Notes under the pieces: model-generated | Told to the model about the DNA's origin: nothing | Databases searched by the model: none | What the model saw: only the letters and a program-made list of their open reading frames with translations | Assembly: GCA_934085825.1 (NCBI GenBank) | Contig: CAKOHR010000002.1 | Coordinates: 113,682 to 177,681 of the forward strand | Source of the DNA: an uncultured Bacilli bacterium | GTDB taxonomy: Bacteria > Bacillota_I > Bacilli_A > RF39 > UBA660 | Length of the DNA: 64,000 bases | Direction: 5' to 3' | In this document: in pieces, positions 57,801 to 59,449 of the stretch | How the letters are laid out: each line of letters begins with the position of its first letter | Numbering within the stretch: position 1 is the first letter of the stretch | Translations under genes and position numbers: made by a program

Positions 57801-58205
57801 TTAAACTATTTTTTTTAAATCACCATTTAAAATAATTGGATTAAAGCCAATAATTTCATCTTTTAATAAACCATCTGGTATATCATTTATCATATATATT
57901 GTTTTTCCTAACCTAAAAGCATCGTACATTTCTAGAAATGTTGCACCCCCGATATAATTTTGAATGCCATTTTTAGCATAGTTTAAAACAAGCACAGCAT
58001 CAACTCCAGAAATAACTTCTTCACTATGTTTAATCATTCCAGCTTTCCACTTAGCGTGTTCATCTGTGCCACGATATTTACTTTCTGTTTCAGGACAATC
58101 ATAACAATTAGGTAATGATATTATATGTCCCACTTTTTCTAGTGCACTCTTAATTGGTGGTATTTTATCATAAAACGCTTTACTGCATATAATAAATATT
58201 TTCAT
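57801..58205 (-). CDS. Nucleoside 2-deoxyribosyltransferase-like (NDT-fold) protein
   Basis: 134 aa; GGATFLEMYDAFRLGKTIYMI resembles the NDT catalytic-Glu region. Own extended -10 promoter (TGtTATAAT) at ~58225-58240. Confidence 0.4.
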   Translation of the reverse strand: MKIFIICSKAFYDKIPPIKSALEKVGHIISLPNCYDCPETESKYRGTDEHAKWKAGMIKHSEEVISGVDAVLVLNYAKNGIQNYIGGATFLEMYDAFRLGKTIYMINDIPDGLLKDEIIGFNPIILNGDLKKIV

Positions 58206-58267
58206 ATATTTTGCTCCTTATAGTTTTATTATAACATAAAAATAGAAAATTTTTTATATTTTTAAAT

Positions 58268-58296
58268 TTGACTTTTAGCCACATTTATGCTATTAT
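58268..58296 (+). promoter_or_regulatory. Near-consensus sigma-A promoter TTGACT-17-(TGc)TATTAT for the candidate sRNA
   Basis: TTGACT at 58268-58273, 17-nt spacer, TG at 58288-58289, TATTAT at 58291-58296. Confidence 0.6.
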
Positions 58297-58302
58297 GTAT
58301 TT

Positions 58303-58420
58303 AGCAAAGAAAATTTGCATATAATAAAAAAATGGAACATCCGTTTTTACCGAGATTGGATGCTACCAATAATGTGGATGGCATCTAAATCAACCTCGTT
58401 GATTTAGATGCTTTTTGTTA
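58303..58420 (+). ncRNA. Candidate ~118-nt sRNA (putative type I antitoxin), convergent with and 3'-overlapping the 27-aa ORF
   Basis: Strong promoter upstream. Intrinsic terminator with a 13-14-bp perfect stem (GCATCTAAATCAAC / GTTGATTTAGATGC, 58381-58411) and a UUUUUGUU tail. No ORF. Confidence 0.5.
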
Positions 58421-58576
58421 GATTGCTAATACAAATACAATTATTAGCAAACATACTATGATGAAGAACAATATAAGAATAAATAAATCCTTTATGCTCA
58501 TTAACATCACCTCTCTTTCAGTTCCAAAACTTTAAAAGAGGTAGCATCCAATCAAACAGGATGTTCCATAAATTAA
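58336..58576. repeat. Imperfect ~34-bp inverted repeats (GGAACATCC...GGATGCTACC / GGTAGCATCC...GGATGTTCC) flanking the peptide ORF and terminator
   Basis: Left arm 58336-58370, right arm 58541-58576. The two outer 9-10-bp blocks are perfectly complementary; the middles diverge. Confidence 0.8.
58418..58501 (-). CDS. 27-aa hydrophobic peptide (MSIKDLFILILFFIIVCLLIIVFVLAI), candidate type I toxin
   Basis: Near-ideal Shine-Dalgarno sequence AGAAAGAGAGGUGAU 8 nt upstream of the AUG. 5'-UTR hairpin ACCUCUUUU/AAAGAGAGGU able to sequester the SD. Promoter TTGCTT-18-TAATAT at ~58575-58608. The 3' end overlaps the sRNA terminator. Confidence 0.45.
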   Translation of the reverse strand: MSIKDLFILILFFIIVCLLIIVFVLAI

Positions 58577-58810
58577 TTATATTACTAAATAGTTTCAAAA
58601 GCAAGCAATTTAAGCCACTTTATAAAATTTATAATAACCAAATTTAAAATATGTATATATAAGTATATGCATGTTTATTTTTAGCAACTTTTTAACCATT
58701 ATTTTTAATTAAGATTGTCCTATTATGTATTTAGCAAAGAAGATTTGCTTGTAACGAAAAAGGAACACATCATTTTGAAACCACTCAGTGTTAACCTATT
58801 TATTTTAAAT

Positions 58811-58840
58811 AAAAAAAGTGCCGAAGCACTATTTACTTTT
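58811..58840 (-). terminator. Terminator of pgsA (UUCG-loop hairpin followed by U7); bidirectional in form
   Basis: Minus strand reads AGUGC-UUCG-GCACU UUUUUUU, overlapping the pgsA stop codon. Confidence 0.6.
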
Positions 58841-59449
58841 CTTTGGAAATAATATGTCTTTAACACCATAGAAATATTGGGCACCAGATATAACTGAAAG
58901 TATTACTGCAGCTATAAGCAAAATATCTGCAACTGGGAAACCAATAAGTTCAAATGGCAAATTATAAAACATTGTAAGGGTAAGTCCACTCATCATACAA
59001 ATTGTTTTAAGTTTTCCCATAATTGATGCTGCCACAACTTTTCCATTTTGTCCTGAAATCATCTTACATGAGTCAACAACAATATCACGAGATATAATAA
59101 CAACTGGAATTACAATAGAAATAATTCTATCATAAGCAAGAATTATTAAAAGCCCATTTACAAGTAATTTATCTGCAATGGCATCCATAACTTTTCCAAA
59201 ATCAGTTACCATATTATTTTTACGAGCTAGATAACCATCTAAAAAATCTGATGTTGAAGCTATTAAAAATATTATACCTGCAATTATATATTTTAAATTA
59301 ACAGTTATTGTTGCTACTTGATAAACAGGAAATTCTACTCCTAAATTGTACCAAGGCATTAAAAGCATTATAAGTAATAATACTGATAAAACTATTCTAG
59401 TCAATGTTATTTTGTTTGGTAAATTCATATATACTTCCCTACTTTCCAT
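58829..59449 (-). CDS. pgsA: CDP-diacylglycerol--glycerol-3-phosphate 3-phosphatidyltransferase
   Basis: CDP-alcohol phosphatidyltransferase motif DFLDGYLAR...G...DAIADK; rodZ-pgsA synteny. Confidence 0.85.
   Translation of the reverse strand: MESREVYMNLPNKITLTRIVLSVLLLIMLLMPWYNLGVEFPVYQVATITVNLKYIIAGIIFLIASTSDFLDGYLARKNNMVTDFGKVMDAIADKLLVNGLLIILAYDRIISIVIPVVIISRDIVVDSCKMISGQNGKVVAASIMGKLKTICMMSGLTLTMFYNLPFELIGFPVADILLIAAVILSVISGAQYFYGVKDILFPKKSK

Follow-up and report, generated by a model that had tools for sequence, protein, structure and literature searches.

An inverted repeat in a multi-copy, type I toxin–antitoxin-like module of uncultured gut Bacilli

The subject of this analysis is an imperfect inverted repeat (58332-58367 and 58540-58569) in a 64,000-nucleotide (nt) stretch of DNA from an uncultured Bacilli bacterium (contig CAKOHR010000002.1), referred to here as the window. 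On sequence grounds, the repeat is part of a conserved unit of ~420 bp, a small and uncatalogued toxin–antitoxin (TA)-like gene pair of uncultured gut bacteria, and the locus is filed as a type I TA-like module of 3′-overlap architecture that is a member of no named family. The favored reading, put forward tentatively and at slightly less than even confidence, is a 3′-overlap type I TA module in which a small RNA (sRNA) mimics the leader of the toxin messenger RNA (mRNA) and competes for the hairpin at the 3′ end of that mRNA. Direct support comes from the anatomy of the locus, its conservation across a family, covariation in a stem-loop that locks the Shine–Dalgarno (SD) sequence, and thermodynamics; we infer the transcript ends, the fold-back of the mRNA in vivo, and the sign of the regulation. 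The main features of the module are the following:

58268-58296, plus strand: predicted sRNA promoter, with TTGACT, a 17-nt spacer, and the extended −10 box TGcTATTAT; predicted start at ~58303
58303-58417, plus strand: predicted antitoxin-like sRNA of ~115 nt, with strong promoter and terminator; match to the family hidden Markov model (HMM) at 58302-58415, E = 3e-31
58332-58367, plus strand: left arm, ATGGAACATCC followed by GTTT, TTACCGA, and GATTGGATGCTACC; core hairpin of the predicted sRNA
58322-58367, minus strand: left-arm antisense hairpin, GGUAGCAUCC/GGAUGUUCC, 9 bp, about −9 to −10 kcal/mol, then A+U7
58380-58417, no strand assigned: shared hairpin of 15 bp, close downstream of the toxin stop; only its plus side bears a T-tail; predicted sRNA terminator, U-less in the toxin mRNA
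58418-58501, minus strand: toxin-like open reading frame (ORF) of 27 amino acids (aa), MSIKDLFILILFFIIVCLLIIVFVLAI, hydrophobic, with its stop 6 nt before the shared hairpin
58509-58542, minus strand: predicted SD-sequestering stem-loop, anti-SD ACCUCUUUU (58542-58534) with AAGAGAGGU (58517-58509)
58540-58569, minus strand: right arm, first 30 nt of the predicted toxin mRNA, AUGGAACAUCCUGUUUGAUUGGAUGCUACC, with a 5′-terminal CAUCC/GGAUG hairpin
58576-58604, minus strand: candidate toxin mRNA promoter, TTGCTT (58604-58599), 17 nt, TATAAT (58581-58576); start at ~58569, the A of AUGG

The inverted repeat and its family

The inverted repeat is confirmed as real and is not a product of chance. On the plus strand, the left arm contains GGAACATCC (58334-58342) and GATTGGATGCTACC (58354-58367), and their reverse complements lie in the right arm at 58559-58567 and 58540-58553, respectively. 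The two motifs have chance expectations of 0.05 and 0.14 per 64-kb window and are found only at the arms. The arm-to-arm duplex reaches −41.5 kcal/mol, compared to −11.6 ± 3.0 kcal/mol (best −24.5) in 500 shuffles, and other assemblies contain dozens of diverged loci in which both arms are conserved.

The initial annotation described an imperfect 34-bp inverted repeat; the repeat stands, and the motifs with their 15- and 9-nt spacers are exact in the sequence. Its extent is longer than first given, with 11 + 18 nt common to both arms, namely ATGGAACATCC + GTTT + GATTGGATGCTACC in RNA sense, or AUGGAACAUCC-GUUU-GAUUGGAUGCUACC as RNA. Its placement required correction to the coordinates used here, by 2-3 nt on the left and by 1 and 9 nt on the right, where the arm ends at 58567/58569 and not at 58576. 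The left arm carries a 7-nt insertion (TTACCGA) and the right arm one extra T, and the loop measures 9 nt in one arm versus 15-17 nt in the other. As originally proposed, each arm can fold a CAUCC/GGAUG mini-hairpin. The further suggestion that the sRNA and the 5′ untranslated region of the mRNA carry the same module is borne out by the sRNA-family HMM, which matches the leader, i.e., the right arm on the minus strand, with E = 4e-5.

The family was assembled from two scans: one of genomes with the arm pattern, which returned many chance matches besides real copies, and one of metagenomes with a terminator-only pattern, which is hence independent of the arms. It comprises 107 distinct copies in assemblies of gut Bacilli, Erysipelotrichaceae, 'Tenericutes', and CAG:460. 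The search for other arm copies that had been recommended at the outset finds none elsewhere in the window, while the arm-pattern genome scan finds up to 5 loci per genome. The left arm is nearly invariant in 97 of the 107 distinct copies, including copies found with the arm-free pattern, and the right arm is present in 58. Plasmid and phage collections contain nothing similar, and viral contigs have no match for the terminator pattern; the 5′-hairpin pattern is too unspecific in viral contigs, and its 26 matches there are presumed to be chance.

The two predicted transcripts

Two traits of type I TA modules can be recognized in the sequence: a small hydrophobic ORF with its own putative ribosome binding site (RBS) and predicted sequestration of the SD. 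The motif GAGAGG is located 8 nt upstream of the 27-aa ORF. Starting from the in-frame GTG (58510) or ATG (58507) further upstream, the peptide would have 30 or 29 aa, respectively. The family peptides diverge widely, with a kept pattern of M-x-x-K-D, ~20 hydrophobic residues, and a terminal K over a length of 24-30 aa. No match for the toxin peptide exists in Pfam or NCBIfam, searches with 8 family peptides, Fst models included, gave none at E ≤ 10, and exact look-ups of the peptide and of PgsA returned no match.

The candidate toxin promoter was read by eye; the promoter scan missed it, its −35 rule not being satisfied. In every toxin-bearing copy of the family, a −10 box, often TGnTAAAAT, ends 5-8 nt before ATGG, so that the right arm would form the very 5′ terminus of the toxin mRNA. 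The right-arm consensus, AUGGAAUAUCCAGUUGAUUGGAUGCUACC, is found in 58 copies and is always followed by the anti-SD. The anti-SD helix opens with ACC, the last 3 nt of the right arm, and the SD core GAGAGG that it involves is at 58515-58510.

This SD lock is supported by covariation. Across 19 distinct leaders, 87% of the cells are paired versus 50-69% when slid, and double-sided changes number 19 versus 8.0 ± 2.2 in shuffles (0/500). Covarying anti-SD/SD pairs include CCUCUUUU/AAGAGAGG, CCUCAUUU/AAGUGAGG, and ACCUUCUA/UAGGAGGU. RNAalifold on MAFFT-aligned leaders put the SD region out of register and overlooked the anti-SD helix, and an anchor-based composite was used instead. The predicted probability of the SD being unpaired is ~0.06, and the stem-loop is thus predicted to be a cis element limiting toxin translation.

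The AUG at position +1 of the mRNA (58569, minus strand) opens short leaderless frames, MEHPV-stop in the window and MEYPVDWMLPHLSKKRK-stop elsewhere, and in some subfamilies this frame ends within the SD. A leaderless small ORF starting there is judged to be non-coding, as neither its length nor its frame is conserved.

The sRNA promoter has 10 of 12 matches in the promoter scan, with TG, and TTGACA-17-TGnTAnnAT is kept in family copies with unrelated flanks. From its 5′ end, the predicted sRNA is laid out as a hairpin, GCAAAgaaaaTTTGC (58304-58318), an A-run (58326-58332), the core hairpin contributed by the left arm, a variable linker (58368-58379), the terminator, and a U-tail. The family has 66-73 distinct versions of it, whose differences fall mostly in the loop and the linker preceding the terminator. 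In most versions, ACC(AA) pairs with a variable downstream (UU)GGU, as read from the sequences, and thereby mimics the architecture of the leader. Neither RNA has a match in Rfam.

Several copies of the sRNA gene, their arms intact, occur as orphans. Some are convergent on a ~298-aa SPFH-like gene (L218, L231, L211), others are convergent on the gene of a 135-141-aa GtrA-like membrane protein (L026, L183, L201, and others), both labels being readings of the translated ORFs. A third set lies beside a decayed toxin ORF with the remnant MIIILILLIK (L170, L232, L234). Judging from these copies, the sRNA outlives the toxin.

The 3′ end of the toxin mRNA is predicted to lie beyond the shared hairpin. 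In the 8 nt that follow this hairpin, 5-7 are U on the plus side, versus 0-2 on the minus side in 98 of 105 family copies. The initial annotation had already pointed to a terminator lacking a U-tail on the minus side, and the hairpin at 58380-58412 indeed has its T-tail on the plus side only. The left-arm antisense hairpin is closed at both ends in 43 of 48 distinct versions, and 5-7 of the 8 nt behind it are U (never fewer than 4); this U-run is supplied by the conserved A-run of the sRNA. The terminator scan missed this hairpin on account of its 12-16-nt loop. Hairpin and U-run probably serve as intrinsic terminator and 3′ tail for the toxin mRNA, in line with other 3′-overlap type I systems, whose convergent genes each contain the terminator of the partner. 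As the shared hairpin is U-less on the minus side and the left-arm antisense hairpin is followed by a U-run, the complement of the left arm is very probably part of the mRNA.

The complementarity of the sRNA is consistent with such an extended mRNA. Against the translation start region it shows no significant complementarity, with a duplex z of ~0 relative to dinucleotide shuffles, and the sole sizeable sRNA target therefore lies 3′ of the stop codon. A par-like pairing of the 5′ part of the sRNA with the translation start region was rejected for the same reason, its duplexes being no better than those of dinucleotide shuffles. The predicted sRNA/mRNA overlap amounts to 40 nt if the mRNA reaches the shared hairpin and to 96 nt if it reaches the U-run; only if the toxin mRNA extends to the left arm does the sRNA gain a substantial target.

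Leader–tail pairing and alternative explanations

With inverted arms and convergent genes, the leader and the sRNA have the same sense and the same sequence. For an mRNA ending at the U-run, a 29-bp 5′-3′ helix from nt +1 is predicted, with a gain of −31 kcal/mol in the window. This helix is predicted in 44 of 44 distinct loci, with a gain of −23 to −36 kcal/mol in 42 of them. The initial annotation had called for in silico folding of full-length versus shortened mRNA, and the extended form gains at least −17 kcal/mol in every one of these loci. Over 27 pairs in 33 distinct loci, 93.5% of 891 cells are pairable versus 26-44% when slid. The identity between leader and sRNA spans nt that are unpaired in both local hairpins (AUGGAA, GAUU, CU) and goes no further than the predicted transcription start. 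Between the arms, the substitutions are unequal, with 43 C>U and 23 A>G versus 5 G>A and 4 U>C, and this strand-asymmetric, G·U-tolerant pattern points to selection on the RNA strand.

The predicted consequence for translation is modest. Fold-back would strip ACC from the SD lock and shorten it from 9 to 6 bp, and the mean opening energy of the start region falls from 12.4 to 10.5 kcal/mol, being lower in 33 of 44 loci and higher in 9. Fold-back as a clear SD opener was rejected, as the SD is paired either way and the ~2-kcal mean drop is reversed in one subfamily; a weak tendency is kept. With the sRNA bound, a 96-bp duplex forms in silico (ddG −85 kcal/mol) and the leader returns to the 9-bp lock.

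Combined into the favored 3′-overlap reading, these elements would operate as follows. A strong promoter on the plus strand would yield the ~115-nt sRNA, ending at the 58380-58417 terminator, and a minus-strand promoter would yield the mRNA for the 27-aa hydrophobic peptide, with its SD locked in the conserved stem-loop. The toxin mRNA would pass the U-less shared hairpin and stop at the left-arm antisense hairpin and its U-run. The resulting 3′ hairpin would be complementary to the 5′ end of the same mRNA and, perfectly, to the sRNA. Self-closure of the mRNA over 29 bp from nt +1 would pull ACC from the anti-SD helix. The sRNA would compete for the 3′ element and should win, giving the 96-bp duplex as a putative RNase III substrate, and its capture of the tail would return the leader to the full SD lock.

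Of the possibilities raised in the initial annotation, a 5′-3′ fold-back of the mRNA with which the sRNA competes is the only one compatible with the data and is partly supported; the helix is predicted throughout, but there are no compensatory changes and the SD is sequestered in both forms. Several observations weigh against the favored reading. The leader/tail helix of the 33 distinct loci shows no covariation, with 1 double-sided cell, equal to shuffles, and rare left-arm variants are unmatched in the right arm. What maintains the helix is conservation, and the covariation test speaks neither for nor against fold-back. The SD is mostly paired in both forms, with an unpaired probability of 0.06 versus 0.09, and in one subfamily (9 loci) opening is harder with fold-back, which leaves the regulatory sign open. 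The local hairpin together with the anti-SD helix also accounts for the C>U/A>G asymmetry, and no clear substitution signal comes from the few positions that take no part in local pairing. The loop of the predicted tail hairpin, at 12-16 nt, is long for an intrinsic terminator; transcription starts, mRNA 3′ end, and read-through are all predictions. The members of the family are related, so that the counts are not independent.

A further set of adverse points concerns the arms themselves. sRNA copies that lack the toxin or the right arm keep their arms intact, and a few toxins lack the right arm, which indicates that the arm sequence is also constrained beyond its cis partner. The GAUGCU of the terminator stem is common to both arms, and pure fold-back leaves it unexplained. 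Near-invariance of the arms, their retention in orphans, and the GAUGCU motif suggest an extra sequence-specific constraint, such as a protein, cross-talk between paralogues, or alternative pairings. CsrA-type binding to GGA motifs was considered as a possibility.

A more specific form of the favored reading, which is possible but rather doubtful, holds that the sRNA is a same-sense mimic of the leader and that regulation works through competition for the terminator hairpin of the mRNA itself. Cyclization of leader and terminator would give a stable, slightly more open mRNA. The sRNA, including orphans acting across paralogous loci, would grab the terminator hairpin by loop-loop pairing, which would re-lock an RBS 200 nt away and mark the mRNA for RNase III. 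If so, one DNA segment would encode an antitoxin core and a toxin terminator/activator on opposite strands.

The strongest alternative, itself possible though unlikely, dispenses with 5′-3′ pairing. The arms would be two copies of one RNA module, a hairpin with flanks followed by an ACC/GGU-closed helix, whose local role in each RNA would be to stabilize the 5′ end, to serve as a scaffold, or to bind one protein or RNase that recognizes both copies. In that case, the sRNA would be an ordinary antisense to the hairpin and 3′ untranslated region, and the similarity of the arms would reflect an inverted duplication under the same sequence-specific constraint. Such a module would account for arms that are almost invariant and do not covary, for their retention in orphan sRNAs without a cis partner, and for the ACC(AA)/(UU)GGU pairing by which most sRNA versions mimic the leader; GAUGCU in the terminator stem likewise fits a sequence-specific reader better than a single helix. 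It leaves unexplained why identity starts exactly at the predicted +1 and why the U-run comes straight after the complement, no candidate protein or motif is identified, and the loop lengths of the arms differ (9 versus 15-17 nt). Moreover, if the mRNA reaches the left arm, the 29-bp helix is better than two local hairpins by >20 kcal/mol and would be hard to avoid.

An attenuator-like switch is a good deal less probable. Here the 5′ strand of the shared hairpin, GCAUCUAAAUCAAC, would have an alternative partner in the arm half UUGGAUGC (GUUGAUUGGAUGCU in the leader), and this pairing would modulate sRNA termination or formation of the mRNA 3′ hairpin. The direct repeat TTGGATGCT/TTAGATGCT (D9) agrees with this possibility, the duplexes reach −11 to −15 kcal/mol over 8-13 bp, and the RNAalifold consensus chose this pairing; on the sRNAs, that choice is probably an artifact of alignment indels. 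The 15-bp hairpin, with −17.5 kcal/mol and a short loop, wins every single-sequence fold, and there are no compensatory changes.

Arm and terminator strands are alike in two further respects. The arm half UUGGAUGCU (58354-58364) resembles the 3′ strand of the terminator, UUUAGAUGCU (58398-58412). The family leader sequence GUUGAUUGGAUGCU (58543-58557, minus strand) is approximately a copy of GUUGAUUUAGAUGCU and could pair over 13 bp with the 5′ strand of the hairpin at −15 kcal/mol. This likeness, which shows no covariation, could represent an attenuator-like alternative or the trace of a common origin.

The weakest explanation, which is highly improbable, places the function in the DNA, with the arms as terminal inverted repeats of a miniature inverted-repeat transposable element (MITE), recombination sites of an invertible cassette, or paired repressor operators. 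What speaks for it is that inverted repeats bracket a ~170-bp segment, that the unit is multi-copy, and that the repeat in the window (I1) appears to extend to both −10 boxes; as in MITEs and invertible switches, short inverted repeats lie ~200 bp apart in a multi-copy element. Here, in contrast, the arms are internal, predicted to be transcribed, and RNA-constrained, with no signature of transposition or inversion. Copies in unrelated flanks are homologous from the −35 box of the sRNA to beyond the toxin promoter and a palindrome (58651-58672). The MITE-like insertion of the initial annotation fails because the arms lie 70-110 nt inside this conserved unit and every copy has the sRNA gene. 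Naked copies and target-site duplications are absent, and the orphans are sRNA genes, not arm pairs. The invertible cassette fares no better: all 97 left-arm and 58 right-arm contexts have one orientation and are free of chimeric junctions, as are the near-identical strains, which are collinear at the locus. Beyond the left arm, the next 5 nt are in every case part of an A-rich linker, and beyond the right arm they are part of the anti-SD, which means that there are no inversion products. No recombinase or transposase is found among the neighboring genes, the inner spacing differs between the arms, family identity stops at ATGG, and the strand-asymmetric, G·U-tolerant substitutions point to RNA selection.

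Genomic setting and related systems

The repeat is located in a 624-bp spacer between the gene of a 134-aa protein (57801-58205, minus strand) and pgsA (58829-59449, minus strand). Neighboring genes encode RecU, a DivIVA-like protein, an HTH_25 protein, and transketolase. Pfam contains no match to the 134-aa protein encoded downstream of the module, yet this protein is conserved and syntenic with transketolase. A search with this protein placed the window in human-gut metagenomes, and the module is unchanged in near-identical strains. Two additional features lie upstream of the toxin gene:

58651-58672, no strand assigned: AT-rich palindrome upstream of the toxin promoter, between pgsA and the promoter and within the conserved unit
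58689-58845, plus strand: degenerate second copy of the sRNA gene, with −10 box, 5′ hairpin, and arm start, reaching the pgsA terminator (58817-58830)

The palindrome is perfect in the relatives L018, L089, and L048, where it reads ATATGTATATAC-AAG-TATATACATAT and is followed by a T-run on the minus strand; it is possibly an insulating terminator against read-through from pgsA. The degenerate sRNA copy is 72% identical to 58259-58346 (direct repeat D1), with a 28-mer that contains one mismatch and an HMM match of E = 0.003, and is absent from the near-identical strains L002-L004 (indel of ~77 nt). Three direct copies of a TTTTAGCCACATT-like sequence (family D4) lie in the sRNA promoter spacer (58273-58285), near the toxin promoter (58609-58621), and before the degenerate sRNA copy (58679-58691), and may be remnants of a tandem duplication of the unit. 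The assemblies L006, L009, and L010 have three independent contig ends at the same point (~58294), the edge of the repeated unit, which fits a multi-copy repeat that fragments short-read assemblies.

Among the closest known systems are 3′-overlapping type I TA pairs of Bacillus subtilis. The sRNA SR4 binds the 3′ end of bsrG mRNA, whose SD helix thereby grows from 4 to 8 bp, and this binding triggers decay by RNase III (PMC3834814, PMC8309996). The bsrG/SR4 pair, along with txpA/RatA and bsrE/SR5, shares with the present locus a Firmicute host, convergent genes, an sRNA whose complement lies in the 3′ portion of the toxin transcript, and helical sequestration of the SD. The in silico counterpart of the 4-to-8-bp change is 6 bp (fold-back) versus 9 bp (sRNA-bound or free leader). 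There is no sequence relation to the peptide or the RNA, and the peptides have 24-30 aa here versus 38 there. The link between 3′ end and RBS would here be an explicit 29-bp leader/tail helix, and the sRNA a same-sense copy of the leader. To our knowledge, a leader/tail helix with a leader-copy sRNA has not been described for bsrG.

In hok/Sok of plasmid R1, with its tac-fbi pairing, and in aapA1/IsoA1 of Helicobacter pylori, the full-length mRNA is closed by a 5′-3′ helix (PMC9841398, PMC5416894), and the antisense RNAs bind the 5′ region of the 3′-processed, open mRNA (PMC9841398, PMC5416894). Shared with these systems are long-distance 5′-3′ closure (predicted here), an anti-SD on the SD, and a conformation that would be set by the status of the 3′ end. 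Unlike the antisense RNAs of hok and aapA1, the sRNA of the present module has the sequence of the leader and finds its complement in the 3′ tail. Fold-back would slightly weaken the SD lock and the shortened form has the stronger lock in silico, which is the opposite of hok; furthermore, there is no mok-like overlapping frame, and the lineage is Gram-positive.

The par locus of Enterococcus faecalis pAD1 (Fst RNA I/RNA II) makes its RNAs complementary through the direct repeats DRa and DRb, with one terminator (PMC8309996). Common traits are an mRNA and an sRNA convergent on one hairpin, an SD in a 5′ stem-loop, and a peptide with K-D near its N terminus (PMC8309996). Here, however, the repeats are inverted, which gives identical 5′ modules and no complementarity at the start region. 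The hairpin is shared but would terminate in one direction only, given the 0-2 U on its minus side in 98 of 105 copies, whereas the par terminator is bidirectional. The family peptides are without the APxxxG motif and have no match to Fst models. The resemblance to hok, fst, and aapA proposed in the initial annotation thus holds in part for hok and aapA, with the sRNA complementary to the 3′ tail and not to the leader, and does not extend to fst/par, whose repeats are direct.

In the literature, no paper was found that links type I TA to Erysipelotrichaceae. Uncultured gut and rumen Bacilli have almost no RNA biology, and the module would add an uncatalogued, multi-copy type I TA family from uncultured human-gut and rumen Bacilli. 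The unit is also a repeat that breaks assemblies and, at ~250 nt, a compact and easily testable candidate RNA switch. If fold-back and competition are true, an antitoxin RNA would control a distant RBS by mimicking the leader, not by pairing with it, and the module would be a Gram-positive counterpart of the cyclized hok/aapA mRNAs with different wiring.

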